The notes below the pieces were generated by a model. That model did no database searches, was not told the DNA's origin, and saw nothing but the letters and a program-made list of their open reading frames with translations. A program made the translations under genes and the position numbers. A DNA stretch of 16,670 bases from a virus (taxonomy: Duplodnaviria; Heunggongvirae; Uroviricota; Caudoviricetes): IMG/VR virus record IMGVR_UViG_3300024270_000052; one strand, given 5' to 3'. Below are positions 2 through 16,466 of this stretch, in pieces (the first letter of the stretch is position 1; the number at the start of each line of letters is the position of its first letter).

Positions 2-352
2 GTATTAACTACTTTTTTTGTAAAATGGGTTAATTCCAAAAGCGCAGAAATCTCAAATAAAATTGATGATGAAACATTAAATAAATATTTAAATATGCTT
101 ACTGAAACAATTAATACTTGCGTTTTAGCAACCAATTAGACATATGTTGAAAGTTTAAAACAACAAGGAAAGTTTGATGCGGAAGCGCAGAAAGAAGCAT
201 TTAATTTAACTTGTTCAGCAGTAATGGATATTTTAAGTGAGGACGCAAAAGAATATTTAACTTCTGCTATTGGAGATTTACAAATTTATATTACAAAGAA
301 AATTGAAGCTGAAGTACATACAAATAAAGTTACACCTTGTGTAAATCAATAA
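2..352 (+). CDS. 3' part of a phage protein, putative holin-like (5' end outside window); one TAG=Gln at 137-139
   Basis: Frame 2 reads VLTTFFVKWVNSK...CVLATN(TAG)TYVESLKQQGKFDAEAQKEAF...VNQ-TAA(350-352), open apart from one TAG. From recall, it resembles phage proteins with a TNQTYV.SLK.QGKF motif often labelled holin; the function is uncertain. Confidence 0.6.
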
Positions 353-361
353 AATAAATAT

Positions 362-395
362 AGGGGAACCTTTAGTATAATCTAAAGGTTCCCCT
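362..395. terminator. Bidirectional intrinsic terminator between convergent genes
   Basis: Perfect 14-bp stem AGGGGAACCTTTAG (362-375) / CTAAAGGTTCCCCT (382-395), 6-nt loop, A-rich on the left and T-rich on the right, between stops at 352 (+) and 410 (-). Confidence 0.85.
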
Positions 396-409
396 TATTT
401 TTGTTTATA

Positions 410-1114
410 TTAAATTCTATTATAAGTAAGCCAACGTTCACGAATTAAATCATGAGATTTTTTGGGAAAATATAATACTTCATCATTTTCAAAAGTTAAA
501 TGGTCAGTATCAATAATCTTAATTTCACTTAAATTAATCAATAAACTTGGTGCTAAAAATAAAAATTGCGGATGTTGGTTCAATGGAGTTATTGCTTTTT
601 CAAAAGATGAGCGCAATGACTAACCATCAAACATTGTTCCATTTTTTAAATGATAACATAAACAACGTTTTACAATGTTAATATAATTAACTTGACTTGA
701 GCGTATTCTTCTTTCACCTTCCGCAGTTTTAATTACCAAACTATCTTCTCTTATCTCTTTTTTAATTATATTAAATAATTCAAACAATTCTTCTTTTTCT
801 ATTGGTTTTAAAAAATAATGATCTGCATGCACTTTATAAGCAGGATAAGCGAGAGAAGGATCTTCTCCAATAAAAATAAAATAACTATTTGGGTCTATTT
901 TATCCATGCGATGACTTAACTCATATAGATTTTCTGATGAATCAGTGTCCATAATATAAACATCAAAACTTGCAGGAACAACAAGTAAATCTTCTGATTT
1001 ATCAAAAATTGATACTTTTGCCACAGACTTAGATTCTATTAAATATTCTTGAATCATCTCACGCAATTCATTTAAATATGTTTTGTTGTCATCATAAATA
1101 GCAATAGAGAGCAT
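410..1114 (-). CDS. LytTR-family response regulator (receiver + LytTR domain), 234 aa; TAG=Gln at 620-622
   Basis: Track ORFs 620-1114 and 410-616 are in one frame, separated only by a TAG: ...KNGTMFDG-Q-SLRSSFEKAI... The receiver has IAIYDD, YIMD and YFLKP; the C-terminal half has a LytTR-like layout. SD AAAGGAGG upstream; ends in TAA. Confidence 0.85.
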
Positions 1115-1149
1115 ATTTAAACTCCTCCTTTAAAATTTTTTACAATATT

Positions 1150-1178
1150 ATTATAACATAAATTTGTGAGAAAATCAA
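1150..1178 (-). promoter_or_regulatory. sigmaA/sigma70-type promoter for the LytTR gene
   Basis: Minus strand reads TTGATT-17 bp-TATAAT with an extended -10 TG (TGTTATAAT), about 35 nt upstream of the ATG at 1114. Confidence 0.75.
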
Positions 1179-1426
1179 ATTTTTTTGTGTAAAAAGTGTA
1201 AAAAATTTTAATTTTTGAGTATTTGATTTTTAAATTTACTTTTTGACATTCGGATTTTAAAAATAAAATTGTAATTTTGAAAAATTGAATAAAAATTGTA
1301 AGGATGAAAAATCAGACAAAAAATGTGTGAGTGTTTCTTGTTTAAAAATCTGAAACAATTTTTATATAGTAATGGAAGGGTAAGAGAAAAATAAAAAAAA
1401 TGAATAAATACCTTGGAGGTGAATAT

Positions 1427-1903
1427 ATGAATTATCAATATAATCAGTAGCAGGTGAGTCCACCGCAGAATTAGACGACTCAGCAGTATTCTTACCAACG
1501 ACAAGTTCCTTATACTTCTGGAACTTGGAATGCGAGAGTCAGACCGGTTTCTTCAATTGAAGAAGTAAGAGCATCTTCAATTGATTTTGATGGCTCAATT
1601 TTTTATTTCCCAGATGTTGCTAATAAAAAAATCTATACTAAATTTATTAATTTAGATGGCTCTGTGGCAATTAATGTATATGAGTTAAAAGAAATGCCAA
1701 CAGGTTAGGCAGCAGATTCATCTTACATTACAAGAGAAGAATTTGAAAACGTAATTATGTAGTTAAAAATGATGTATAATAATTCTTCTGCGCCTTCTAC
1801 TCCAATAGAAGAATAGCAATAGGTATAGTAGTAGATGAATAGTAATTAGTTTGCGGCACCACCCGCACAATAGCAACATAATGTTTCGCCATTACAATTT
1901 TAA
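1427..1903 (+). CDS. Cassette gene 1: Gln/Asn/Pro-rich termini with a central globular region, 158 aa; 11 TAG=Gln codons (absent from the ORF track)
   Basis: SD GGAGGTGA 1415-1422, ATG 1427, TAA 1901-1903. Reads MNYQYNQQQVSPPQNQ...RVRPVSSIEEVRASSIDFDGSIFYFPDVANKKIYTKFINLDGS...YITREEF...EEQQQVQQQM. TAGs at 1448, 1472, 1706, 1760, 1814, 1820, 1826, 1829, 1832, 1847 and 1871, mostly within Gln runs alongside CAA/CAG. Confidence 0.85.
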
Positions 1904-1916
1904 GGAGGTATGAAGA

Positions 1917-2162
1917 ATGGCACAAGTTGATCCGAGACAATTAATAGCTATGATTAGAAATGGTCAAAATCCTCAACAACTTATGTTAAGTGTTTTAGAG
2001 ACGATGCAAGATACTCCTTTTGGAGCCAATTTATTGAATCTCGCTCGCAATGGTTAGACTGCGGAGATTGAAAAAATTGCTCGGAATATCACATCTCAAA
2101 GAGGTATGGATTATGATAAAGAGTTTAATGCCTTTAAACAATAGTTTTTTGGCTTTAAATAA
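1917..2162 (+). CDS. Cassette gene 2: small helical hypothetical protein, 81 aa; TAG=Gln at 2055 and 2142
   Basis: SD AAGGAGG 1902-1908, ATG 1917, TAA 2160-2162. Reads MAQVDPRQLIAMIRNGQNPQQLML...NGQTAEIEKIARNITSQRGMDYDKEFNAFKQQFFGFK. Confidence 0.85.
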
Positions 2163-2199
2163 ATAAAATATTTTTTTTAATTAAAGGAGGGTTTCTTTT

Positions 2200-2994
2200 A
2201 TGTTTAATTCTAATGGTTACAGTTTGGCAGATATCGTTGCCGCAACAGGTGGCGGTAGAGAGAATTGCGGCGGCTTCGGCGGCTGGGGCGGAGATGGATG
2301 GTGGATTATCCTCTTATTCTTGCTCTGGGGTAACAACGGCTGGGGCGGCAATCAAGGTGGACGTGGAACAGTTCGTGAAGAAATTGCTTATGGTTTTGAT
2401 ATGAACGGTTTAGAAAATAGCGTCCGTGGTGTTCAGCAAGGTATTTGTGATGGTTTCTATGCCATGAATACTGGTATGTTAAATGGATTTAGTAACATTC
2501 AAAATACTCTATGTCAAGGTTTCTCTGGTATCAATCAAGGTACAGCTCAGTAGACATTTGATTTATCTACTCAGTTACATGGTATGGCAGCTGATAATGC
2601 GGCTTGTTGCTGCGAAACTCAGCGCGCTATTGAAAGAGGATTTGCTGAAACCAACTATAACATGGCAACTCAAGCTTGCGATACTCGTAGAGCAATTGCT
2701 GATAGCACTCGTGATATTATTGACAGTAATAACGCAGGTGTTCGTTCTATTTTAGATTTCTTAACTCAGGATAAGATTGCTACTCTTACCGCAGAAAATC
2801 AGAGTCTAAAATTCGCAGCTTCTCAGGCAGCTCAGAACGCTTTCATTGCAGCTAATCAGGAAGCTCAAACCGCAGAACTTATTCGCAGACTTGATACCCC
2901 ATGTCCTATTCCCGCTTATGTAGTTCCTAATCCTAATTGTTGCTATCCATCTTATGGATATGGGTATGGCAACACTGGATGCTGCGGTGGTTAA
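2200..2994 (+). CDS. Cassette gene 3: Gly-rich/hydrophobic N-terminus, helical core, Cys/Tyr/Gly-rich C-terminus, 264 aa; TAG=Gln at 2551-2553
   Basis: Track ORFs 2200-2553 and 2584-2994 share a frame and join as GTAQ-Q-TFDLSTQLHGMAADNAACCCETQRAI. SD AAAGGAGG upstream; ends in TAA. Confidence 0.85.
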
Positions 2995-3019
2995 TTAACA
3001 AAGGAGGTAAAAAATCTGT

Positions 3020-3439
3020 ATGGAAATTATTGCTAATGCTTTATAGACAGTTCCAGCAAATCAGACTGTTTATTTCACAGATACCGCCGTATGCGGTGGC
3101 CCATCTATGACTCATAGAGCTGGTAGTGGTTTAATTACTCTTAGAGGAATTACTAATCAATGTAGAGCAAGATTCCGCATCACTTTTGGAGCAAATATTG
3201 CTGTTCCAACAGGAGAAACAGTTGGACCAATTTCATTGGCTATTGCGATAGAGGGTGAACCTCTTCAAGCTACTACAATGATTGAAACACCAGCGGCTGT
3301 TGAAGAGTTCTCAAATGTTTCAAGAACTACCTTTATTGATGTTCCTCGTGGATGTTGTGTAAGTGTAAGTGTAAGAAATGTAAGTGATATTCCAGTAAAT
3401 GTACAAAACGCAAACTTAATTGTTGAACGTGTTGCTTAA
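3020..3439 (+). CDS. Cassette gene 4: predicted all-beta protein (possibly BclA-CTD/C1q-like jelly roll), 139 aa; TAG=Gln at 3044-3046
   Basis: SD AAGGAGG at 3001, ATG 3020, in frame with track ORF 3107-3439: MEIIANAL-Q-TVPANQTVYFTDTAVCGG... Alternating hydrophobic beta-strand pattern; the fold assignment is an inference. Confidence 0.8.
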
Positions 3440-3457
3440 TGAAAGGAGGTCTTATAA

Positions 3458-4105
3458 ATGGAGAAAAGATTAGAACATATGAAAGAATCTTTAATGGCTT
3501 GCGTTGAAAGTCAATTAACTCATTTAGATACAGTTGATACTAAAGAATTAGGTGAAGCCATTGATATGATTAAAGACCTTGAAGAAGCAATCTATTATTG
3601 TACTATTACAAAAGCAATGAAGGAACAGGATAAAGGAGAAAAAGAATCTCATAAATATTATCCAGTAATGTATAATAGAGATATGGATAGAGATATGGGA
3701 AAAATGTATTATGAAAACCCAAATTATATGGGTGGTAATGATACAAAACGTCAATATTCATCTGGAAATGGAGGAGGCAACTCCTCCTCCATGAGTAATT
3801 CTTCTGGAAGCGGAGGAGGTAATTCATCCTCTGGAAATACTGGTTCAAAACAATATAGTGAAACAGAATATAATTTAATGCGCGACCAGCGTGAAGGACG
3901 TAGTCCTCAGTCGCGCCGCATGTATATGGAATCAAAAGAAATGCATTCAGATAAAGCAACTCAAATGCGTGAATTAGAAACTTATATGCAAGAGTTAACT
4001 CAAGATGTAGTTGAAATGGTTGAAGGTGCAACTGTTGAAGAAAAGCAGTATTTAAGTAAACGAGTAGCAGCTCTTGCAAACAAATTGGCTCAATTAAATG
4101 ATTAA
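3458..4105 (+). CDS. Cassette gene 5: helical N- and C-terminal regions with a Gly/Ser/Asn low-complexity linker, 215 aa; no TAG
   Basis: Track ORF with SD AAAGGAGG. Linker SSGNGGGNSSSMSNSSGSGGGNSSSGNTGS. Stop TAA 4103-4105 overlaps the next gene. Confidence 0.85.
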   Translation: MEKRLEHMKESLMACVESQLTHLDTVDTKELGEAIDMIKDLEEAIYYCTITKAMKEQDKGEKESHKYYPVMYNRDMDRDMGKMYYENPNYMGGNDTKRQYSSGNGGGNSSSMSNSSGSGGGNSSSGNTGSKQYSETEYNLMRDQREGRSPQSRRMYMESKEMHSDKATQMRELETYMQELTQDVVEMVEGATVEEKQYLSKRVAALANKLAQLND

Positions 4106-4442
4106 CATTAATGGTGAACAATGGAGAGTGTTTTTAACCTCTCCATTTCACCCTGCTTTAAAACGCAGTGATGGTGCTTATACTCTAGGATGCTGTGATG
4201 ATGTAACAAAAACAATTTATATAAGTAATGATGTAAGTGATAAATATTTAAAAAAAGTTTTATGCCACGAACTCACTCACGCCGCAATGTTTAGCTACAA
4301 CGTAGATTTGACTTATGAGCAAGAGGAAGTTCTCGCTGATATTATAGCAACATATGGATAGGAAATTATTCATATGGCAAATCTTCTCTTTAAGAGGTTA
4401 AAAGATGAAAGAGAAGAAGAAAGAAAAAATGGGAGTATCTAA
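4098..4442 (+). CDS. Cassette gene 6: small HEXXH zinc metallopeptidase-like protein (ImmA/IrrE-like), 114 aa; TAG=Gln at 4359-4361
   Basis: Motif VLCHELTHAAMF followed by EEVLAD. After the TAG the frame continues YG-Q-EIIHMANLLFKRLKDE... to TAA 4440-4442 inside the terminator hairpin. Start overlaps the end of gene 5. Confidence 0.75.
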
Positions 4443-4465
4443 TAATTTAGATACTCCCATTTTTT
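4424..4465. terminator. Bidirectional intrinsic terminator
   Basis: AAAAAATGGGAGTATCTAA (4424-4442), loop TAAT, TTAGATACTCCCATTTTTT (4447-4465), between convergent stops at 4442 (+) and 4469 (-). Confidence 0.9.
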
Positions 4466-4468
4466 TTG

Positions 4469-4906
4469 TTATATATTACAATCTCGTACTTCTAACTTCA
4501 TCGCACTTTCATAATAATTTTTAGCTTGACCATTGCCGCCCAAAGAAGTATATAATTTATAAAATTCAGTTAATTGGTCATACTAGTCGGGAGTCATAAA
4601 TCCTTGTCTAATAAATCCTTTGCATAATTGAACTAAACGGAAACGATAAGAAGAAATAATTAAATTCATGTGATTCTTTTCTACTTGACCCACATTATAG
4701 ATATAAGACCTTAATTCTTCAAGCTCCTATTGAATTGGTTCAATTTTACTGTCAATTGTTTCATTCAATTTGTCAGTCTCTTGGTCTGCTAAAAGCTTTT
4801 TATAATTTTTCATTTGACTATGCATATATTTACAAAAAGCTAAAGCACCAGCAGAAATTAAACCAAAAATAATTTCAATGAAATGTTCAGTTAAAAAAGC
4901 TAACAT
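4469..4906 (-). CDS. Phage membrane-anchored protein with an LGGNG motif (possibly holin-like/lysis-associated), 145 aa; TAG=Gln at 4727-4729 and 4583-4585 (absent from the ORF track)
   Basis: SD AAAGGGG, ATG 4906, TAA 4469-4471. Reads MLAFLTEHFIEIIFGLISAGALAFCKY (TM-like)...IEPIQ-Q-ELEEL...GFMTPD-Q-YDQLTEFYKLYTSLGGNGQAKNYY. The holin role is tentative. Confidence 0.7.
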
Positions 4907-4912
4907 TATAAC

Positions 4913-4969
4913 AAATCCCCTTTCTTAAAATTTTTTCTCACACTATATCAATTTTAAGTAAGGGGATTT
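4913..4969 (-). promoter_or_regulatory. RBS-sequestering hairpin with a candidate extended -10 promoter in its loop
   Basis: 20-bp inverted repeat with one mismatch (4913-4932 / 4950-4969). On the minus-strand RNA the 3' arm contains the SD of the 4906 gene. The loop region reads TGATATAGT (4942-4950) on the minus strand. Confidence 0.65.
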
Positions 4970-4972
4970 TAT

Positions 4973-5464
4973 TTATTCAGACCAATCAAATGATTTTGCC
5001 TAAGAGTTTAGATACCAGTGACCAATACATATTGCGTCACTTTCATCTTCTGTAGCTTGTTTATTATAAAGCGTTTTTATTAATAACTAAGCTTCTTTTT
5101 TCTACTCTGGACGAGTTCTACTTTTTATACCGATTTTACTTTTCCATACTGTAGCTAATACAGCTTCAACTGGTATATCTAATTCTACAATCAATTCATA
5201 AATAACACCAAATACTTCTGCTAATGTTTTAAAGGTTTGAACATTTCCTGTTACATTAGATTGAAGTTGTATATCTTCCATTATAACTTTATTAATAGAA
5301 TAAGTATCAATTAATTGATGAACATTTTTTCTAATATTAAGCAATCTATCTCCTAAATCGGATTGATTACAAGTAAAATGTCCATAATCAATTAATTGAT
5401 TATCTTCAAATATAGCATATCCAGTTATTTTAGAAGACTAATCTAAAGATAAGATTCTGCTCAT
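4973..5464 (-). CDS. ruvC: RuvC-like Holliday junction resolvase, 163 aa; TAG=Gln at 5438, 5102, 5087 and 5000
   Basis: Reads MSRILSLD-Q-SSKITGYAIF...VIMEDIQ...VWKSKIGIK...TEDESDAICIGHW, the RNase H-fold D/E/D catalytic pattern. The ATG overlaps the TGA of dut (ATGA); ends in TAA 4973-4975. Confidence 0.85.
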
Positions 5465-6156
5465 ACTGATTCAAAAACATCTGCTTTTAATCCAAGAGAA
5501 TTAAAAACATCAAGTAATTTTTCATCAATTTTAATTTCGTTATTTAAATTAATTGATTGTAAAGAAGTAGAACCAAATCCGCCTGTTCGTAAGCCAATAG
5601 CTACATCATCTTCAATGGTATAATAAGGTTTAATAATTCCTTGACCAATAATATCTCCTCGTTTTAATTGAATATCAAATGGAGATAAATTAATTAATTG
5701 AAAGAAAATTTCACCTTCATTATCAGGATTATTATAATAATCAGCGTCAATAATACCAACTCCATTAGCAAGAATAAGCCAATATTTTAAAGGAGTAGAA
5801 GACCGCACGCTTAATTCAAGATAAGTATTTGGAAGTAATTCACATTTCATTCCAGTAGAAACTAAAGAAGGTTTAATTTTTGATGCTTTAGTAACAGCGG
5901 CAACATCTTCAAGAGTATAAGGTTTACTCATCTTTTGCGCAAGCTCATATTCAGCCTTCTTCTTTTCTTCTGAGTCAATTACATTCTAATGTAATTGGAA
6001 TAGTTCATATCTACCAAGCCAATTCAATTCTTCAGAACAAGATGGAATTATAATATCTTCAGCTACAACAAAATCATATCCAGCGCTCTGTTCTGTTTTT
6101 CTAATTGGTAAAGGTAAATCAATATCATTAAATCTACTTACTTTTTCAAATTTCAT
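5461..6156 (-). CDS. dut: Trimeric dUTPase, 231 aa, with an insertion between motifs I and II; TAG=Gln at 5986-5988
   Basis: True start at 6156 (MKFEKVS...RKTEQSAGYDF, motif I), in frame with track ORF 5461-5931. Motifs RSS, GIIDADYY, GDIIGQGI and RTGGFGSTS are present. TAATG coupling with the upstream gene; ends in TGA. Confidence 0.9.
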
Positions 6157-6401
6157 TATTCTACCTCATAATTAATATTAACAAAACTTATCGGGTCTTT
6201 TTCATCATTGAAATGTTTGTTTAAAGTAACTTTATACCAACTATCAATAACTGCACCTTTAGATTTTCTTTCTTTAAATTCACTAGAATATTTTGCTAAT
6301 GAAAATTCAGTAGCATTCTTAGCTTCATCAATAATTTCTTTTACTTCATTTTCATTATCTACTCTATATACTTCAATTGTACTTACAAGATATTTTGACA
6401 T
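6156..6401 (-). CDS. Hypothetical protein, 81 aa
   Basis: Track ORF with SD GAGG; its stop overlaps the dut start (TAATG). Confidence 0.75.
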   Translation of the reverse strand: MSKYLVSTIEVYRVDNENEVKEIIDEAKNATEFSLAKYSSEFKERKSKGAVIDSWYKVTLNKHFNDEKDPISFVNINYEVE

Positions 6402-6402
6402 T

Positions 6403-6663
6403 TTAATTTACCTCAATATTAATTTTTTTAGTATTATAATTTTTTACATTATACATTTGAATATCTTCAATAAAACCTTCAAGATATCCTTCATTACCAT
6501 ATAGGTGAATATTGTATATATCATATGTATAACAACTACTAACAATTACTTCTGCTAAATTATCAATAGTTGTTGAAGCTATTTCTCGCTTACCATTATC
6601 ATCATAAATAAATATATACTAATCAGTATTAAATAAATTAACTGAACTAACAATATAACTCAT
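6403..6663 (-). CDS. Hypothetical protein, 86 aa; TAG=Gln at 6619-6621 (absent from the ORF track)
   Basis: ATG 6663 follows the TAA of the upstream gene, with SD GGAGG. Reads MSYIVSSVNLFNTD-Q-YIFIYDDNGK...INIEVN-TAA(6403-6405). Exactly fills the gap between its neighbours. Confidence 0.75.
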
Positions 6664-6664
6664 T

Positions 6665-7063
6665 TTATCCTCCATATGAAACCATTAAACCTTCACAATC
6701 AAATAAGCACATACATAAATTTTCATCTTCATTTGTCCGCACCCAAATTTCAATTGTATCAGAAGCTTCCATATAATCAACAGTAATAATCTTACCAATA
6801 TCTAAAGCGCAAGTAAGAACTGCTTTTCCTTTATTTTCAAAATCCGATTCGTTTGCTTTTGGATAGAAAATAGTATAATAAGAAATTTCTTTACATAAAA
6901 GCATTAAATTTGAATAATTTTTCATTTTATCATTAATTAATTCAATATAAGGGTCTATATTATCTGCTATTGGAAGCTATGAAACAATAGATTTATTTAA
7001 ATCATATAGATTCATAGAAATATTTCCATAATCTTTAGATTCTTTTTTTAAATTACACTTCAT
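6665..7063 (-). CDS. Hypothetical protein, 132 aa; TAG=Gln at 6977-6979
   Basis: SD AAAAGGAG and ATG at 7063, in frame with track ORF 6665-6925 across one TAG (KSIVS-Q-LPIADN). Confidence 0.75.
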
Positions 7064-7093: not shown

Positions 7094-7122
7094 ATTATAT
7101 CATATTTTTTTATTTTTGTCAA
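7094..7122 (-). promoter_or_regulatory. Consensus sigmaA promoter overlapping the 3' end of nrdG
   Basis: TTGACA (7117-7122)-17 bp-TATAAT (7094-7099), with an extended -10 TG. Confidence 0.85.
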
Positions 7123-7582
7123 GATAAATAATACGTTGATTGCGGCTTCCTCTCATAGGAAGTGTAATGTCTCTTTCAGCTTCAATATAAGGTCCATCAA
7201 TTAAACAAGTAATTAATTCTAAAATTTCTTTTATATTTGGATTATGAGGTAAATCATCGTAAGTATACCCTGTCCATAAATAAATTTCTGTATCTGGTAA
7301 TTTTTCTTTAACAGTTTTTATTACCAATAAAGTCAAAAAAGTATTTTCAGGACATAAAGGTTCTCCACCCAAAATACTTAAAGAACGCTTAATACCATTA
7401 GCTTGAAGAGCTTCAATTATTTCATTAATTACATCAGTAGTAAATTCTAGTCCTCCGTCATAATCCCAAGTTTCGGGATTATGACAGCCAAGACAATGAT
7501 GCGGACATCCTTGAGTATAGAAAGAAACTGATACACCAGTTGCCGCAGAAAAATCATTTTTAATTAAACCTGCATATCGCAT
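7100..7582 (-). CDS. nrdG: Anaerobic ribonucleotide reductase activating enzyme (radical SAM)
   Basis: FYTQGCPHHCLGCHNPETWD (CxxxCxxC), SILGGEP, LIDGPY and RGSRNQRII; adjacent to nrdD. Confidence 0.95.
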   Translation of the reverse strand: MRYAGLIKNDFSAATGVSVSFYTQGCPHHCLGCHNPETWDYDGGLEFTTDVINEIIEALQANGIKRSLSILGGEPLCPENTFLTLLVIKTVKEKLPDTEIYLWTGYTYDDLPHNPNIKEILELITCLIDGPYIEAERDITLPMRGSRNQRIIYLDKNKKI

Positions 7583-8211
7583 TATTCTTCCTCCTCTAAG
7601 TCTAAATCATGAACATCATCTGGATTAGCTACTTCGTAATAAAATATACATCTACAACTGGGATGATATGGTGGGAGATTAACATCTTCATCTGGCGGAT
7701 ATTCTCCGCCTTCACACATATCACATCCACTTTCAATTACTAATAAAGTAGCATTAATAGGTCTTTTATTTTTCTTTACTGCATTTTCTACATTTTTAGT
7801 TTCTGTATTTAAAATTCTTTCAAATTTATAAACTAAATTATCTCTTATTTCTTTATAAGTTTTTTCTTTTAAAATATCTTGTCTTGTCTCTTCCCAAATT
7901 AAAGACAATCTATCTTGAATTGTTTTTCCATCTTCTTTATAAGTTAAATCAAAGATATTTTTGATATTAAATTCTTCTACTTCTTCATATAATTTTTCTA
8001 TATATTTACTTGTAATAAGATATGTTTCAGTTAATGATTCATAAAATAAATCTTCAATTTTTTTATATGCTTTATCCCAAAGTTTAATATTAAAATTATT
8101 TGAATATTCTCTGACAGCTTTTAAAGATTTATTTATAATTTTTTCAAAATATTTATCTTTAGATTCGTCAATTAAATCTTCTAATTTAAGTATTTCTTTT
8201 CTGATACTCAT
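7582..8211 (-). CDS. Protein with a phage MuF/SPP1 gp7 (minor head protein)-like C-terminal motif, 209 aa
   Basis: ERILNTET...CDMC...LPPYHPSCRC resembles the R..RTE...PP.HPNCRC signature. TAATG coupling to nrdG. Confidence 0.6.
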   Translation of the reverse strand: MSIRKEILKLEDLIDESKDKYFEKIINKSLKAVREYSNNFNIKLWDKAYKKIEDLFYESLTETYLITSKYIEKLYEEVEEFNIKNIFDLTYKEDGKTIQDRLSLIWEETRQDILKEKTYKEIRDNLVYKFERILNTETKNVENAVKKNKRPINATLLVIESGCDMCEGGEYPPDEDVNLPPYHPSCRCIFYYEVANPDDVHDLDLEEEE

Positions 8212-8216
8212 AACAA

Positions 8217-10508
8217 TTATCCATGTTTAACCCTTCGCTCTACCTCATCTTGTTTACCAAGGTTAAAAGCAGTTTTATAATTACCAGTTAAATAACCAGT
8301 AACTCTACGCAATTGTTGAATTTCTTTACTTCCGCATTCTGGACATTCATCATTAAATTCATCAGTATATCCGCATTTAAGACAAGTATCATTTGGAACA
8401 TTTACTGCGAAATAAGGAATATCTTTATCCATAGCATAATTTACTAAAATTTCTAATGCCTCAAGATTATTTTTAATTCCACTATCCAATTCAACATAAG
8501 TAATACATCCAGCAGAAGAATAACAGGTTAATTGAGATTCAATATCAATTTTTTCAAATGGAGACATCTCTATCCACACAGGTACATGCATAGAATTAGT
8601 AAAGAATTCTTTATCGGAAACATTCTCAATTACACCATATTTATCTTTAAATTTCTTTAAAGCAGTATGACATAGGTTTTCCGCAGGTGAATAATAAACA
8701 CCAAAATTTAATTTATATTCATTTTTAAATTGAGCACAACGAGTTTTAAACAATTCTTCAATTCGTTTTGCTAATTCCATTCCTTCTGGAGTAGTATGAT
8801 TTTTTCCAATAAGAATTTGAAGCGTTTCAGCAAGACCTAATTGTCCAAGAGCAAGGGTACCATGCTTAAGAGCGGAACGTATTCCTTCTTCTGGAATATA
8901 TCCTGCCATAAGTCCATTTTCATACATAAACTTAGCAGAATCAGGAGATTGACTACAAATCCATTCAAATCTTTCAATAAGCATATCTTTAGCATCATAT
9001 ATTGCTTTATCAAGAATTTCCATAAAAATATCTACAAGTTCAGTAGTATATTTATATTTATCTGTAAATTGATTTTCCCACTCTTCTTTTGCTTCCATGG
9101 CTAATGTAGGAAGAATAATTGTTACAGGACAAATATTACCTCTACCATCTTTGAGTTGACCAAAACCATTAATATCCCAACCATTTGCTGTGCGGCATCC
9201 CATCGTTGAGAAATAAGTTCTTGGGTCATTAATATCATATCCAGCATTACCAGACCAATCAACATTTGCGTAATTGGGATATAGTCTTTGAGCGGTTGAT
9301 TTTAAAGCCAATTGGAATAAATCATAATTGGGGTCTCCAGGTTTACGATTTACACCTTTCATACATTGAAAGATTCCACAAGGGAAAATAGATGTTTTAT
9401 GTAAAGCTCCAATACCTTCAATGGATACTTCAAGCAAAGCTTTAGTCACCATTCTACCTTCTGGTAAAGTACAAGTACCATAATTAATAGAAGTAAATGG
9501 CAACTGATTGCCTGAACGAGATTGAAGTGTATTAAGATTATGATACATTCCTTCTACGGCTTGATGTGTTTCTTTTTTTGTTTCAAATAGAGCTGCTTGA
9601 CTTAAATATTTATCAAGATTAACAATATTACTAAAAGTGAAATCTTCATATTTAAGATTAAATTCTTTTAAATATTTTTCTTTATGATTTTCAACCCAAT
9701 TATCTAATTCTTCATTTGGCATATCCAAAAGAGACAGAGCTAAAAATTCGTCAGTATGTTTTACATATTCTAATACATAATGTTTAAAAAATGATTTGCG
9801 TATATAAGGCACCATGGTCCAGTCAATATGTGTCGCAGAAACACCACCAAATTGTTGTAAACTTTGTAATTGGAAAATAACCGCTACAAGCTGAAATGCT
9901 GTATTTACAGAACCTGCGGGACGCACATCTGTTTGTCTGGTATTAAATCCTTTAGCAAGCAAATCATCAAAAGGAATAGATAAGCAATTATGTGAACCAA
10001 CATAATAACTATTTAAGTCATGAATATAAATACGATTATTTAAATGATTTTCTCTTGCTTTTGGTGATACAATAAAATCTAATGCTAATTGTTTCGTGAC
10101 CACATCTCCAGCTTCACCTGTGCGGCCTCCAAAAGATGCTTCATCTACATTAGCATTTTGGTTTTGGATATTTGTAGCATTTAATTTTTCTTTAACTGCG
10201 TCAATAAAATCATTTTCATAATGTCTAGCAACTTCTTTTTTATATCTATAACGAATATATTCTCTTGCTACATCACTGCGTTCAGAACGCATTAAATATT
10301 CTTCAACTTTATCTTGAACTTTTTCAACAGTAAATGGTTTATCTGAATTATGTACAGCATCTTTATAAATAGCTTCCGCTATATCAGCAGCTGTATCTGT
10401 TTCATAAAGTTTTCCATCAACTTCAAGAAAAGCTTTATTTATTGCGGTAATAATTTTACCTTTATTAAAAGGAACAAGTGTTCCATCTCTTTTATAAATT
10501 TGTACCAT
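8217..10508 (-). CDS. nrdD: Class III (anaerobic) ribonucleoside-triphosphate reductase with an N-terminal ATP cone, 763 aa
   Basis: ATP cone (IYKRDGTLVPFNKGKI), HNCLSI, TMGCRT (thiyl Cys), Zn site CLKC...CPEC and glycyl-radical loop RRVTGYL. SD GGAGG. Confidence 0.97.
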   Translation of the reverse strand: MVQIYKRDGTLVPFNKGKIITAINKAFLEVDGKLYETDTAADIAEAIYKDAVHNSDKPFTVEKVQDKVEEYLMRSERSDVAREYIRYRYKKEVARHYENDFIDAVKEKLNATNIQNQNANVDEASFGGRTGEAGDVVTKQLALDFIVSPKARENHLNNRIYIHDLNSYYVGSHNCLSIPFDDLLAKGFNTRQTDVRPAGSVNTAFQLVAVIFQLQSLQQFGGVSATHIDWTMVPYIRKSFFKHYVLEYVKHTDEFLALSLLDMPNEELDNWVENHKEKYLKEFNLKYEDFTFSNIVNLDKYLSQAALFETKKETHQAVEGMYHNLNTLQSRSGNQLPFTSINYGTCTLPEGRMVTKALLEVSIEGIGALHKTSIFPCGIFQCMKGVNRKPGDPNYDLFQLALKSTAQRLYPNYANVDWSGNAGYDINDPRTYFSTMGCRTANGWDINGFGQLKDGRGNICPVTIILPTLAMEAKEEWENQFTDKYKYTTELVDIFMEILDKAIYDAKDMLIERFEWICSQSPDSAKFMYENGLMAGYIPEEGIRSALKHGTLALGQLGLAETLQILIGKNHTTPEGMELAKRIEELFKTRCAQFKNEYKLNFGVYYSPAENLCHTALKKFKDKYGVIENVSDKEFFTNSMHVPVWIEMSPFEKIDIESQLTCYSSAGCITYVELDSGIKNNLEALEILVNYAMDKDIPYFAVNVPNDTCLKCGYTDEFNDECPECGSKEIQQLRRVTGYLTGNYKTAFNLGKQDEVERRVKHG

Positions 10509-10578
10509 TAATAAATCCTCCGAAAATATTAATTTGGGGCGACCCTATTATATTTAATAGTTGTTTTTTTATGGTTAA

Positions 10579-11133
10579 TTACTTCTGCCCAATGATGCTT
10601 AAAATTGTCTTTACGTTCTTCATTAAGTCTAATGTATTATCATTTTGTAATTCAATATATTCAAAAGGTAAATCTGAAAAATCTTTTTTATCAGTTCCAT
10701 AACGTCTAACAATTTCATCAACATTTGGTTCATCTTCTCTATTTAATTGTCTTAAAAGTCTTTGTTTATCAGAAGCTTTTATATAAAAAATAGTTACATC
10801 AATTTGAGGGTCTGATAGTAAAAATTCAACACGAGATGGGTCAAATACTCCTATATTTATAACATCTGAACGTAAACATTCATAATCAGTTCCATAAAAC
10901 CAATCATTAAAAGTTGCCATTTCTACTAATTCATTATTAATAGCTTTTTGCGCAAATTGCTCTGGTGTTATAAAATAGTAATTAATACCTTCAATTTCAT
11001 TATCTCTACGAGGACGTGTAGTATAACTAATAATAGAATGAACATCATTAGTATTTTCTAAAATCATTCTTAATAATGTATCTTTACCAGAACCAGATTG
11101 CCCAATTAAAGCAATTATTTTATACTTCTTCAT
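10579..11133 (-). CDS. gmk: Guanylate kinase
   Basis: P-loop GQSGSGKDT, SYTTRPRR.NE.EG.NYYF and YGT motifs; 184 aa. Confidence 0.9.
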   Translation of the reverse strand: MKKYKIIALIGQSGSGKDTLLRMILENTNDVHSIISYTTRPRRDNEIEGINYYFITPEQFAQKAINNELVEMATFNDWFYGTDYECLRSDVINIGVFDPSRVEFLLSDPQIDVTIFYIKASDKQRLLRQLNREDEPNVDEIVRRYGTDKKDFSDLPFEYIELQNDNTLDLMKNVKTILSIIGQK

Positions 11134-11359
11134 TTATGTCAATAGCCTCATCTTCATATTCATATTTTAATTGATTAGGTAATTCATTACGATAAAAAGT
11201 ATATTTCCTTTTACAGGTAGGACAAAAATAAACATACTGTTCAGGATAAGTACATAAAACTTTACCAGTACTTTTTATTTCTTCATTACAATCTTCACAA
11301 TAAAAGCTATCTATATAGATAGCTTTTACATATCGTCTTTTAATTTTCATCTTCTTCAA
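11120..11359 (-). CDS. Small zinc-ribbon-like protein, 79 aa
   Basis: CEDC...CPTC pairs; overlaps the dnaE stop and the gmk start. Confidence 0.7.
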   Translation of the reverse strand: MKKMKIKRRYVKAIYIDSFYCEDCNEEIKSTGKVLCTYPEQYVYFCPTCKRKYTFYRNELPNQLKYEYEDEAIDINEEV

Positions 11360-13847
11360 TTCCTCCTTGATAACGTTCCGAAGTTAATTTTAAATCAGTT
11401 TTATTTACAATTTCTTCAATTTTATACAACTGATGACCTGGCGTACTATTGTATTTTTTAACAATAAAATTATCTCCAGAACGAATACCCATAACCGCAA
11501 TCATATTACCACGATTAAACCAAGATTTTTCTACAATCTTTTTAGTTCCATCAGGATTTTTGATAGAAATTTGTTTATCAAATAAAGAAAAATATTCTTT
11601 TCTAAATTTAACTTCTACAACTCCATGAGTTGTTAATAACGTTACTGTGCTTTTAACCTTATTTTTTGCTATACAGGTTCCGCAAATTTTATGAAGTTTA
11701 AACATATGAATTTCTTTTCCTCCACGAGCAAACACTTGGTCTACTATTGGTTCTTCTGGCAAAGCAAAGAAATCAACAAATCCATATTTATTATGATTTA
11801 CATCAATTAATTCATGTTCGTGATAATAAAAACATAAAACTTCCATCTCCCAAGCAGAAATTGTACCTGAAGCATATTTCTCCCAATCTTCAAGAAAAAC
11901 AGCATCATTTATTTTTACTAAGATTTCATCTTTATTTTCATTAATCCATGTTCTAAAAATATCCATCCAATTTTGATAAATTTTTTCCCATTGCTTAATA
12001 TTCATAAAGAAAATTGTATCTTTTGTTATAATCAAATTATCACAATGTACTTCAATAAGAAAATTAATAGCTCTTTCATCTAATTTATATAATTCATTAT
12101 TAAATTTACAAATTGCTTTTAAATAACGATTAAATTCATATACTCTTCTTGCTAAAATTTGTTCTTCAGTTTCAGATGGAAGTAGATTATATTTAATTAA
12201 TCCACCCATATTTTGTAGAGTAATTCTTTTTTTTCTATCGCAAGTTTCCCAAATATACCAAGCCATACAAGTTTTACGTTCCATCATATCATCAAAAGCT
12301 CCACCCTTAATCAATGAAATCATAGCTTGCTTGCCTGGATTTACTTTATTCAAAAAATCTCGCGGAGATACATAAGGTCTATGTTCAATGATAGATGCTA
12401 CGACATCATCACCAACATTTAATAATCCTTTTAAACCAAAAAGAATTCTATTGTTCTCAGCATCTGGCGCAAAGCCATATTTAGATTTATTAATATTTGC
12501 TAAACTAACTTTAATACCAGCAGCTTGAATATCACCAATAGCTTTCGCAATTTTACCATAATCAGTACTTGCGCCAGCTTCTTCATCAGTTGCGCCACTA
12601 TTAACAATTAAACAAGCTGTATTCCAATAGATAGGATTAAATTTAGTTGCCAATAAAATTGTTTGAATACCAACAAATGAATAAGGTAATGAATGATTTA
12701 AACTAAAAGCATATCCAAGTTGTGGAGCGACCGCAACTTCCCAGACATAATCTGCTATATTAGAATTTCCAATTTTTTCATACACTTGCGCTTTTAATTC
12801 CGGAATTTTTGACATCTGTTTTTTTGCTACTATTTTACGAGCAGCGTTTGCTTCACCTAAAGTAAAATTAGCAACCTCCATCAAAATTTCCATCATTTGC
12901 TCTTGGATAGGACAGCAACCATAATATTTATCACAATGTTTATGCATTAACTCAATCATTTTTTCAGGCAAATGATTAAATTTCATTTCTTTATCAAAAA
13001 TATTAATTCCTGATTTTTGAATGCGAGCATATCTATCTTGCTGACTTTCTTTACCTTTTTCAGACATAAGTCTCATCATAGCATTTGCGGCAGTCATCTC
13101 TAAAGGATTTTGTGGTTTAAGTTTTTTCGCAATTGCTAATCCAACACCACCACTAAACTGAAATACATCCAATATATCACCTGCGGCTAAATGATTCCAA
13201 ATATAATTTTCAGATGTGTCAATTATTTCTGGATGAATATATTTATTATAAGTTTCTCTTAAACCAATATTTTCAATTAAATTATCCTCATGTAACATTT
13301 CAAAACATTTAATAATTTTATCAGAAACTTCAGTTACAAGAAAATCATATTTAGTATCACCTGCTGCTTCCGCCGCATGTAAGTCAAAACAAGTAATTAA
13401 ATCTCCATTTGGTGCTCTCATAAAAGATGCTGTATCAAATGGATTTTTATCATAAAGAATTACACCAGAAGCATGAATGCCACGTTTATTTACTAATCCC
13501 TCTATTGAAATGATAATATCAACCAATCCAGGATATTGATTAACTTCTTTTATAAAAGTTGTAACTGGTTTTCTATCTTTTTCTTCATCACCATATAATA
13601 CTTCTGAAATAGACCATAAAAATCCACGTTCTTGAGGAATTAATGATGACATATATTGCGCTACATCTACATCTATTCCTTCTGGATATTCTTCACTTCT
13701 ATAACCACGACAAGCTGTAAGAACAGCTGATTTAGTTCCTTCAGTTCCAAAAGTTGCTACCTGAACCAAACCAAATTCTCCACGTTCTTTACGAATTGCT
13801 TCAAAAATCGCTGGTCTTTTACTTGGAGCCAGGTCTATATCAATATC
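11340..13847 (-). CDS. dnaE: DNA polymerase III alpha subunit (family C), exon 2
   Basis: The frame extends upstream of the track ORF to GAT at 13845-13847: DIDIDLAPSKRPAIF...VQVATFGT...HASGV...GYAFSLNHSLPYS...FGLKGLLNVG and a C-terminal OB-like region. The spliced product is 1292 aa. Confidence 0.93.
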   Translation of the reverse strand, partial: DIDIDLAPSKRPAIFEAIRKERGEFGLVQVATFGTEGTKSAVLTACRGYRSEEYPEGIDVDVAQYMSSLIPQERGFLWSISEVLYGDEEKDRKPVTTFIKEVNQYPGLVDIIISIEGLVNKRGIHASGVILYDKNPFDTASFMRAPNGDLITCFDLHAAEAAGDTKYDFLVTEVSDKIIKCFEMLHEDNLIENIGLRETYNKYIHPEIIDTSENYIWNHLAAGDILDVFQFSGGVGLAIAKKLKPQNPLEMTAANAMMRLMSEKGKESQQDRYARIQKSGINIFDKEMKFNHLPEKMIELMHKHCDKYYGCCPIQEQMMEILMEVANFTLGEANAARKIVAKKQMSKIPELKAQVYEKIGNSNIADYVWEVAVAPQLGYAFSLNHSLPYSFVGIQTILLATKFNPIYWNTACLIVNSGATDEEAGASTDYGKIAKAIGDIQAAGIKVSLANINKSKYGFAPDAENNRILFGLKGLLNVGDDVVASIIEHRPYVSPRDFLNKVNPGKQAMISLIKGGAFDDMMERKTCMAWYIWETCDRKKRITLQNMGGLIKYNLLPSETEEQILARRVYEFNRYLKAICKFNNELYKLDERAINFLIEVHCDNLIITKDTIFFMNIKQWEKIYQNWMDIFRTWINENKDEILVKINDAVFLEDWEKYASGTISAWEMEVLCFYYHEHELIDVNHNKYGFVDFFALPEEPIVDQVFARGGKEIHMFKLHKICGTCIAKNKVKSTVTLLTTHGVVEVKFRKEYFSLFDKQISIKNPDGTKKIVEKSWFNRGNMIAVMGIRSGDNFIVKKYNSTPGHQLYKIEEIVNKTDLKLTSERYQGGIEEDEN

Positions 13848-15029
13848 CGTTTATTGGACTATATTTTTCATAATGACTTACTAAGAGCATTTTACTTCAG
13901 TCATTACTAGAACATCTTTCAGACGGTGCTTATCTCCGCCTTACATAAATAGTCTCTACACATTTAATCTTATTTTTCTATTTGTTTCCAATAATAGCCT
14001 TTATATAAAGTTCCATTTTTAATCGCTTTATCTAATTGAGTGTGTCCTTTCATTCCTAAGAATTGTAAGACTGCGGTTTTAGCATTAAATATTTGAATTA
14101 AATTGTAATTTTCATCATACATTTCAATTCGTTTTCCATTTAATGCTTGATTACCACTTTTACCATACATACCATTTTTTTCGCCAGCGGTTTTACCTTT
14201 ACTATTTACAGACATTTTCTACTTAGACTCTTCTGTATGTTTTTTACCATACATTCCATTATTAGAACCTTTTGTTTTTTCACTCATTTTTTGTTTAAAC
14301 TCTTCAGTTCTATAAGGAGAGTTGTCTCTTTCAAATTCTGCCCAATAAGATAAAAATGCTTTAGTTTTTTCACTATGGTATTTTCCATACATTCCATTAT
14401 TCTTACCACGATTTACTTCACTTAATTTTCGGCACAAAACTTCTTTTTCTTCTGGTGTATATCCTGCGGTAGTGTTTCCTCCACAACCGCCCTCATGAAT
14501 ATTATAAAACAATGGATTTGATGTGGCATTATATAAGGCAATAAATTGTTTTTCTTTTTCACTATTTTCTAAATCATTTTTAGAAACAAATAAAATGGAC
14601 TTTGTAAAACAGTCTTTTCCATATTTGGCAATTTCTTTTTTCAATTCTTTTCCGCTGCCTAAATATGAATCATCTAATTCTCCATAATGTTTTCCGATAT
14701 ATTTCATACCATTTATATTATTAGTAGTTAAATAAATATAATGTTGTTTCATTTAAACAACCCCCTTTCATATATATTTAACTTTTAGAATTAGACAATG
14801 ACCTGACTTTGTCCAAGATTTTTAGCACGGTATTCCCAATCTAACCTTTTTTAGGTCATAGGGTCTCTTAGTCAGTTGATTCGCATTTATATAACATAAA
14901 TCCTATTTCGCTGATACCGTTAGCCTGCGGTTACTCGTCTCGCCGGTCGGATGACCGGGCCGCCGCAGACACCCATTAAGCAATGGTTAATGTTCTTTTT
15001 TTACAACTGCCCAATATCAATATTAGACT
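13848..15029 (-). mobile_element. Group I self-splicing intron (1182 nt) in dnaE, with a homing endonuclease in the P6 loop
   Basis: P1: exon AACTGCCU pairs with GGGCAGUU (15005-15012), giving a U.G pair at the 5' splice site; terminal G at 13848. P3 AGAACATT/GATGTTCT; P4 ACGGTAT/ATACCGT; P7 GACTA/TAGTC with J8/7 AAAAATATAGTCC; P8 TAATGACT/AGTCATTA. Removal restores in-frame ERAELP-DIDID. Confidence 0.93.
13970..14752 (-). CDS. Intron-encoded GIY-YIG homing endonuclease with NUMOD3-type repeats and a C-terminal NUMOD1/HTH-like region, 260 aa; TAG=Gln at 14219-14221
   Basis: N-terminal HYIYLTTNNINGMKYIGKH and YLGSG; repeated NGMYGK.H.E..K motifs. Track ORFs 14219-14752 and 13970-14215 join in frame as KHTEESK-Q-KMS. 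SD GAAAGGGGG. Confidence 0.9.
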
Positions 15030-16400
15030 AGGCAGTTCGGCTCTCTCTTTATTTAAAAATCTCCAATAAGGGAGACCCCAACGAATTGGGTCAAGTTGAG
15101 TAATACCAAGCAAATAATTTGAAAGAAAACCGGTCGCAGAACCTCGTCCAGGTCCAACAATTGAACCGCATTCCCAAAACAAATCAATATAATGTTTAAA
15201 AGTATTGAAATAAGCGAAAAGACAATCATCAAGTTTTTCTCCAATAAACTTAATTACATCTGCCTCAATTTCAATACGATTAATATATTCTTCATTAAAT
15301 AAATTTTTATTTATTAATTCTTGTAGACATTCATTAATCCAATATCTTTCTTGAGATTCATCAGATATTAAAAGTGATTTAATAATCGGCCAATTAGTAT
15401 CTAATTCATCTTTTAATGAATTATTAATACCAAAATAAGATAAAGTTTTAGGATAATCTTTTACTTTTACTTTTGGAATAATTTGTTTTCTTTCAATTGA
15501 ATAAAATTCAATTTTATTTTTTATTTCATTTGTATTATTTAAAATCCATTCTGAAATATCATCATCTTGATAAGCATATGTTAATAATTCTTTAGCTTCA
15601 TTATAATCCATTAAACGAGCAAATTCATAAAATGAATCAACTTCTCGTTCTCCACCTTTAGAATTTAAATAAGCTTTATGAACCCATCTATCTTGACTTG
15701 TATAATAATGAGCATCAGTTCCTGCGACTAATTTAATTCCAAAAGATTGAGAAATAGAGTATAATTTTTTATTAACCAATACTTGGTCTTTTGTAGTTGC
15801 TGGGGCGCATTCTAAATAGAAATCATCACCAAATAATTCAAGACAATAATTAATAAAATCAATTATTTTTGAATAATATACTTTCATTGTTTCCATGTCT
15901 TGAACTTCTTCAGCTAAACAAAATTGTAATAAATTTGATGATAATTCTCCACCAAGACAAGCTGTTGTAGCTATTAAATGTCCTTTATATTTATTAACAA
16001 TAGTTGATAATTCTTTTTTTAAAACTGGAACTCTTTCCATTTTTCTATCAACATATAAATTATACCAAGCTATTGAACTTAATTCTTTTAATGCCATATA
16101 ACCAATTTTATCTTTGGCAATTAAAATAAAGTGATAATATTTTTGACCACTACTTCTATCATCTGTTAAATAAATTTCATTACCAAGTGCAATTGTAAAA
16201 TCTGGATTTGTCTCTCTCAATTTCTTAGCATATTGATTTACTTCCATGTGCGCAGATAAACATTCATGGTCTGTAATTGCTATACCGTTTAAACCCAATT
16301 CAATTGCTTTATCAATTAAATCTTTAGGTCTATTTATACAATCAAGTAAGCGAATATTTGAATACATTGTATGATTATGACAATTAAAATAACTGTTCAT
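15030..16400 (-). CDS. dnaE: DNA polymerase III alpha subunit, exon 1 (PHP domain and start of the polymerase domain)
   Basis: PHP motifs HNHTMYS, AITDHE and GTDAHY; GPGRGSATG, LLGITQLDP and WRFLNKERAELP. 457 codons up to the splice site. SD GGAGAG. Confidence 0.95.
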
Positions 16401-16437: not shown

Positions 16438-16466
16438 ATTATACCATATTTTATATGAAAAATCAA
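16438..16466 (-). promoter_or_regulatory. sigmaA-type promoter for dnaE, overlapped by an inverted repeat
   Basis: TTGATT (16461-16466)-17 bp-TATAAT (16438-16443) with TG extension. Inverted repeat TTTTTCATATAAA (16424-16436) / TTTATATGAAAAA (16450-16462). Confidence 0.75.

Follow-up and report, generated by a model that had tools for sequence, protein, structure and literature searches.

Why would a run of phage genes lack a codon that the genes beside it use freely? The question is raised by a 16,670-nucleotide stretch of DNA (the window) from a gut-type phage, the Caudoviricetes record IMGVR_UViG_3300024270_000052, where it occupies bases 101,676-118,345 of a linear virus record of 126,353 bases, rated 71% complete. 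Six genes on its minus strand, namely dnaE (Pol III alpha), a Zn-ribbon open reading frame (ORF), gmk (guanylate kinase), nrdD (class III ribonucleotide reductase), a MuF-like ORF, and nrdG (the activase), contain 2,675 codons with 71 CAA, 9 CAG, and 0 TAG. This recount agrees with an original prediction, made from the window alone, of no TAG among roughly 80 glutamine (Gln) codons and about 2,690 codons in all; the 27 TAGs that it had counted in the genes at 2-7063 are exactly 27, among about 113 Gln codons. The prediction took this partition for a translational timing switch. The analysis described here points to another explanation, which we regard as probable: TAG is tolerated where it costs little, and purged from genes whose products are required early or in large amounts.

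Genetic code and the distribution of TAG

According to alignments with homologues, TAG is a Gln codon in this phage, because Gln is found in homologues opposite TAG about as often as opposite CAA or CAG (Gln, the top residue, fills 49 and 42% of aligned cells in TAG columns, and 51 and 54% in CAA/CAG columns). The same alignments rule out a reading of TAG as glutamate. Coding density is 81% with TAG as a sense codon and 62% under codes 11 and 4, a gain beyond the 5% threshold for code 15. Genes were called with a custom script, so that start sites and small ORFs are approximate. Sequencing error was rejected as a source of the TAGs, as the structural-arm TAG counts are unchanged in near-identical contigs from three further samples. 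The record has a GC content of 30% and 17 clear tRNA genes. Its sigma-A promoters and its closest cultured relatives, which are phages of Bacillota, suggest a host in that phylum; TerL is 49% identical to that of Enterococcus phages and 42% to that of phAss-1, while NrdD is 68% identical to that of Thomasclavelia phages and 37% to that of phAss-1.

The absence of TAG from the six genes is well beyond chance. At the genome-wide TAG rate (28% of Gln codons), 0/80 would arise with a probability of 3e-12, and the difference is significant by Fisher test against both the genes at 2-7063 (27/113, p=1.8e-7, although a single Gln-rich gene holds 11 of these 27) and the structural arm (p=9e-16). Across the whole record, the TAG share of Gln codons is 2.6% for the replication arm (5/193) and 37% for the structural arm (284/762; p=5e-27), which confirms the genome-wide depletion that the prediction implied, and an arm of small, early-type genes stands at 4.6%. 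The block shows no significant difference from the remaining replication genes (p=0.13) or from the early arm (p=0.10), and is therefore part of a larger TAG-poor region. Gene by gene, the absence is informative for nrdD, for dnaE, and weakly for gmk; at the late rate, nrdG, the MuF-like ORF, and the Zn-ribbon ORF would each be expected to be TAG-free 22-36% of the time. Nor is the whole interval 7094-16400 free of TAG, as had been supposed, since an intron-borne GIY-YIG gene inside dnaE has one.

The promoter at 7094-7122 and the replication genes of relatives

Two sets of relatives were clustered at 90% DNA identity and counted over aligned regions only. The window side comprised 80 loci retrieved by NrdD, with 20 recoded and syntenic lineages as judged from genes outside the block; the structural side comprised 80 loci retrieved by a 371-amino acid capsid candidate, with 24 recoded lineages.

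In the original prediction, as in the strong form of the proposal of Borges (10.1101/2021.08.26.457843), positive selection would favor TAG in late genes, where it would act as a timer, and TAG content would predict timing at the level of single genes; the switch itself was placed at a perfect sigma-70/sigma-A consensus promoter (12/12, with TG) that overlaps the nrdG stop codon at 7094..7122 on the minus strand. The best change-point of the minus arm in this genome does fall there, a point for such a switch. It is, however, poorly located (score 20.4, with neighbors at 18.7 and 17.7), because nrdG and the MuF-like ORF hold just 5 Gln codons, and the relatives have no step across the promoter: 64 of 751 Gln codons are TAG upstream (8.5%), and 15 of 198 in the first four downstream genes (7.6%; p=0.77). 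In the window these four, three small ORFs and a dUTPase gene at 5461..7063 (-), have 3 TAGs among 11 Gln codons. The promoter, which is kept in 16 of the 20 recoded relatives and in one standard-code relative, is thus ruled out as a code boundary and, to judge from its sequence, is a transcription start. The six-gene unit is headed by a sigma-A promoter of its own at 16438..16466 (-) (10/12, extended -10 TG), found at the same place in most relatives. Strong sigma-A-type promoters number 53 genome-wide, 48 of them on the minus strand (early and replication arms). About 27 near-identical sigma-A promoters lie at genome positions 27882-42520 (-), ahead of small, TAG-free genes that are richer in GC at third codon positions.

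Within the replication arm, the depletion is gene-specific. The spliced dnaE gene (exon 1, with the PHP domain and the start of Pol III alpha, at 15030..16400 (-); exon 2 at 11340..13847 (-); both TAG-free) has 37 Gln codons and no TAG, and across the 20 recoded lineages only 10 of 843 dnaE Gln codons are TAG (about 1%). The nrdD gene (8217..10508, -), with 0/28 here, reaches 5.7% in those lineages, 12 of which have at least one TAG. The remaining block genes are looser still: TAG-free in the window, nrdG (7100..7582, -; 3 Gln codons), gmk (10579..11133, -), and the MuF-like ORF (7582..8211, -; 2 Gln codons, weak head-morphogenesis PHROG matches) have 17, 20, and 30% TAG in recoded relatives, the last figure from the five that have the gene. 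The TAG-free Zn-ribbon ORF (76 amino acids, 11120..11350, -), with 2 Gln codons, is uninformative. A fully TAG-free block occurs in only 3 of the 20 lineages. By comparison, two other genes of the same arm are regularly recoded. RuvC, the Holliday-junction resolvase (4973..5464, -), has 4 TAGs among 11 Gln codons, the first at codon 9, and 45% in relatives (18 of 19 lineages with TAG); RecJ has 25% (15 of 15). TAG is less frequent in dnaE than in RuvC in 17 of 18 lineages, and than in RecJ in 15 of 15. The regular presence of TAG in these two early-arm genes is a further point in favor of a switch.

A historical account, in which the replication block was acquired from a standard-code phage too recently for TAG to have built up, would draw on the interleaving of standard-code and recoded relatives at 65-80% identity and on an NrdD nearer to that of a Thomasclavelia phage than to that of phAss-1. 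Yet recoded and standard relatives share one gene order, all 20 lineages have a TAG-poor dnaE, and its operon neighbors gmk and nrdG, as well as RecJ, have gained TAG; we find this account scarcely credible. By capsid identity (75-82%), standard-code phages (L093, L102, L146, and L156) and recoded phages (L091-L166) are also interleaved, so that the code differs among close relatives.

Sequence conservation likewise fails as the cause of the dnaE depletion, contrary to one way in which the timing proposal might have been undone: TerL, 74% identical to its relatives, is better conserved than DnaE (34-76%) and yet has 33% TAG, and a change from CAG to TAG is synonymous here. Alternatively, translation of TAG could be slow or leaky, and every TAG-poor gene highly expressed, with timing irrelevant. 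The strong effect of expression in the late arm (below) and the intermediate codon-bias score of nrdD (-0.22) fit this explanation. The scores of the other replication genes do not, with the reservation that the weights were trained on late genes of relatives, Gln codons excluded, and may miss high expression early in infection: the replication arm as a whole scores -0.31, compared with -0.28 for low-copy late genes (292/747 TAG, 39%), and dnaE, helicase, primase, and RecD-like genes, none of which has TAG here, score -0.29 to -0.35. The arm of small early genes is also just 4.6% TAG. As far as codon bias can tell, then, the dnaE depletion is not due to high expression, and expression level by itself is a very improbable explanation. 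Because conservation and expression both fail for dnaE, we infer that a need for the protein before suppression is the remaining explanation of its lack of TAG.

Late genes and selection on TAG

Late genes break the correspondence between TAG content and timing. In the 24 recoded lineages, TAG accounts for 3 of 337 Gln codons in the major capsid gene, 4 of 186 in the tail tube gene, and 4 of 328 in the two genes before capsid, whereas TerL (168/505, 33%) and portal (185/582, 32%), in the same operon, are rich in TAG; this capsid/tail contrast recurs in 24 of 24 lineages (p=1e-7). Because abundant late capsid and tail genes are as TAG-poor as dnaE, a TAG-free gene need not be early, and the proposal that the timing of single genes can be read from their TAG content is not supported. 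The TAG-poor structural genes show high-expression codon bias, and in the late arm of this genome the genes with more expression-type bias have lower TAG fractions (rho=-0.64, p=1e-5), so that expression level does explain the depletion in the late arm, though not in dnaE.

CAG is one transition away from TAG. In high-copy genes CAG stays at 62%, in standard-code and recoded relatives alike. Low-copy late genes average 37% TAG, compared with a naive equilibrium of about 58% estimated from the other two-fold codons, and fall below it in 24 of 24 lineages; this comparison gives no sign of positive selection for TAG. These data fit a combination of tolerance and purging, alongside which a few genes may be under selection to have one TAG or more.

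Further points for an adaptive switch come from individual genes. A conserved sigma-A promoter of host type heads the structural operon, the first gene of which (genome 44508-45566, +; 4 TAGs here) contains TAG in 14 of 15 recoded lineages; but the TAG positions vary by lineage, and one recoded lineage has none. By eye, its product has a helix-turn-helix (HTH)-like stretch and a C-terminal Cys finger; it matches PHROG 5767, "sigma factor", a label that is unverified, as sequence searches against Pfam and PDB returned no sigma factor. The late rate is exceeded at p<0.05 by just two genes (9/10 and 10/13), neither of which is clearly significant after correction for multiple testing. The first, with the highest fraction in the genome (9 TAGs among 10 Gln codons), encodes a 227-amino acid HTH protein in the early arm (genome 23867-24550, +), for which a search for relatives found none. 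To judge by the holin, lysis genes are not preferentially recoded: the holin gene, the 3' part of which lies at 2..352 (+), has 1 TAG among 7 Gln codons here and 13 among 127 (10%) in relatives, also counter to a switch. Considering these points together with the TAG-poor capsid and tail tube genes, the missing step at the promoter, and TAG below naive equilibrium in every lineage, an adaptive switch seems unlikely. A narrower version, that late timing is largely translational, is conceivable because host-type sigma-A promoters drive both the RuvC unit and the structural operon: a few recoded genes (RecJ, RuvC, and the HTH/Zn-finger protein at the head of the structural operon) would serve as gates, held until suppressor tRNA accumulates, with capsid and tail genes staying TAG-free. 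We consider this quite unlikely.

Tolerance and purging would operate as follows. TAG is a third Gln codon, which would be read by a suppressor tRNA of the phage itself in a host that presumably has the standard code, and in a 30%-GC genome CAG would readily mutate to TAG. Selection would purge TAG from genes whose products are required while suppression is still inefficient, most strictly dnaE and, less so, nrdD, primase, and helicases, and also from the genes of very-high-copy proteins, namely major capsid, tail tube, and two neighbors. The six-gene block would be one sigma-A-promoted replication operon of the early-needed kind, its complete lack of TAG reflecting selection that is strict for dnaE and weaker for nrdD, and in the small genes chance. 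Early-arm genes able to wait, such as RuvC, RecJ, and the intron endonuclease, carry TAG and are probably delayed thereby.

Several points weigh against this explanation. A tRNA with a CUA anticodon was not found in the 71%-complete record by ARAGORN at several thresholds, Rfam, BLAST with suppressors of relatives, or a hairpin scan, nor was a release-factor gene found in it. The record does end inside its tRNA cluster, just after tRNA-Tyr, and relatives place the suppressor beside Tyr and Val; a suppressor tRNA(CUA) is present in four of the four relatives whose tRNA clusters were read. The code of the host is itself presumed. Constraint on the replication genes is not absolute, as one relative (L076) has TAG at 6 of 49 Gln codons in dnaE and 9 of 31 in nrdD. 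The lineages share ancestry, and the paired p-values, which carry no phylogenetic correction, are optimistic. The capsid and tail-tube assignments derive from distant annotated homologues. The equilibrium estimate is naive, and recoding is perhaps too recent to have reached equilibrium. Finally, the link of TAG to timing at the level of arms, like the timing and protein amounts themselves, is deduced from sequence rather than expression. A second relative (L032) has TAG at 4 of 42 Gln codons in dnaE and 4 of 29 in nrdD; in L076 and L032 suppression may be immediate, or the host may be different.

Neighboring features and known recoded phages

The two exons of dnaE are separated by 1,182 nucleotides (13848..15029, -), which are best read as a group I intron with predicted splicing. 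The final U of the 5' exon would pair with G in a P1 hairpin, the last intron base is G, and P7-type R/S elements are present; removal fuses the exons in frame into an open DnaE of 1,292 amino acids and restores the motif ERAELP|DIDID. An Rfam search of the intron gave no match, and its class is read from sequence and fold. It is missing from most relatives, and a search for other contigs that hold it, or that extend the end of the record, found none. Within it, a GIY-YIG/NUMOD3 homing endonuclease gene (13970..14752, -) has an in-frame TAG at codon 178 (14219-14221), the only TAG in any gene of the interval 7094-16400.

On the other side of RuvC, a six-gene cassette without assigned function (1427..4442, +) holds 16 of the 27 TAGs of its region, 11 of them in the Gln-rich gene. 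One cassette gene (2200-2994, +), encoding a Gly/Cys-rich protein of 264 amino acids, has capsid-like codon bias and 1 TAG among 17 Gln codons (5.9% in relatives), from which an abundant product is predicted. A gene at 410-1114 (-), response-regulator receiver/LytTR-like, has one TAG and its own sigma-A promoter, and is patchy in relatives. Elsewhere in the replication arm, L007:13846-14676 (-) encodes a lysozyme-domain protein with a hydrophobic N-terminus; it is TAG-free here and 2% TAG in relatives. In the TAG-poor early arm, a three-gene island with a GT2 glycosyltransferase (L001:9599-12217, -) has 24 TAGs among 41 Gln codons and adjoins the tRNA cluster, by which there is also a weak Y RNA-like (YrlA) match (L001:9273-9380, -). 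A tRNA-Ser with the unusual anticodon ACU (L001:4910-4998, -), also found in relative L171, has degenerate tRNA-like genes nearby (343-462, 6784-6848, and 7441-7503), and a 104-nucleotide tRNA-like element with an enlarged center lies far from the cluster (L002:16095-16198, -).

A layout of early dual-coded and late recoded genes has already been published (Borges, 10.1101/2021.08.26.457843; Pfennig, 10.1101/2022.06.29.495998), and this phage is a new example of it, in which the pattern is real and beyond chance. Like the Firmicutes-infecting Agate and Sapphire clades of gut phages, it reassigns TAG to Gln, is low in GC, uses mostly TAA stops, and has recoded codons in its structural genes but keeps them out of the DNA replication machinery; in Agate, too, an early gene harbors a group I intron endonuclease that is recoded (Borges, 10.1101/2021.08.26.457843). 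Unlike in those phages, the holin gene is not preferentially recoded here; capsid genes are not mentioned in that study. As in the dual-coded early blocks and "soft switch" described with Mgcod, early replication genes read the same under codes 11 and 15, late genes require code 15, and the code follows the coding strand (Pfennig, 10.1101/2022.06.29.495998); in contrast to these, the partition here is gene-specific within blocks: the early arm includes nucleases that are recoded, and the late arm includes abundant genes free of TAG.

The phAss-1 group shares code 15, an SPbeta/Enterococcus-EF1-like siphovirus gene set, and DnaE with NrdDG, and its members differ in the TAG status of nrdG and dUTPase (Babkin, PMC10607447). 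Identity to phAss-1 is low (42% TerL, 49% capsid, 37% NrdD) and gene order around nrdD is different, which rules out membership in the proposed genus Phassvirus. An amber-reassigned Crassvirales genus from Egypt likewise has a low-amber replication domain and a high-amber late domain, and its major capsid gene is without recoded codons, which was ascribed to selection for efficient translation (10.64898/2026.08.21.746148); that genus belongs to an unrelated phage order with a different host phylum, and the effect is quantified here across 24 lineages. In crAss-like phages, code 15 was shown by proteomics, with TAG as Gln in structural proteins and no recoding seen in early intracellular peptides (Peters, PMC9523058), whereas the assignment of TAG to Gln here comes from alignment.

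For the annotation of such phages, TAG content taken alone would mislabel the most abundant late proteins as early. Combined with codon bias, it yields three classes: TAG-free genes of low bias, which are probably early, TAG-free genes of high bias, which encode abundant late proteins, and TAG-rich genes, which can wait. As to why phages recode stop codons, these data speak more for purifying selection against TAG than for a timer under positive selection.

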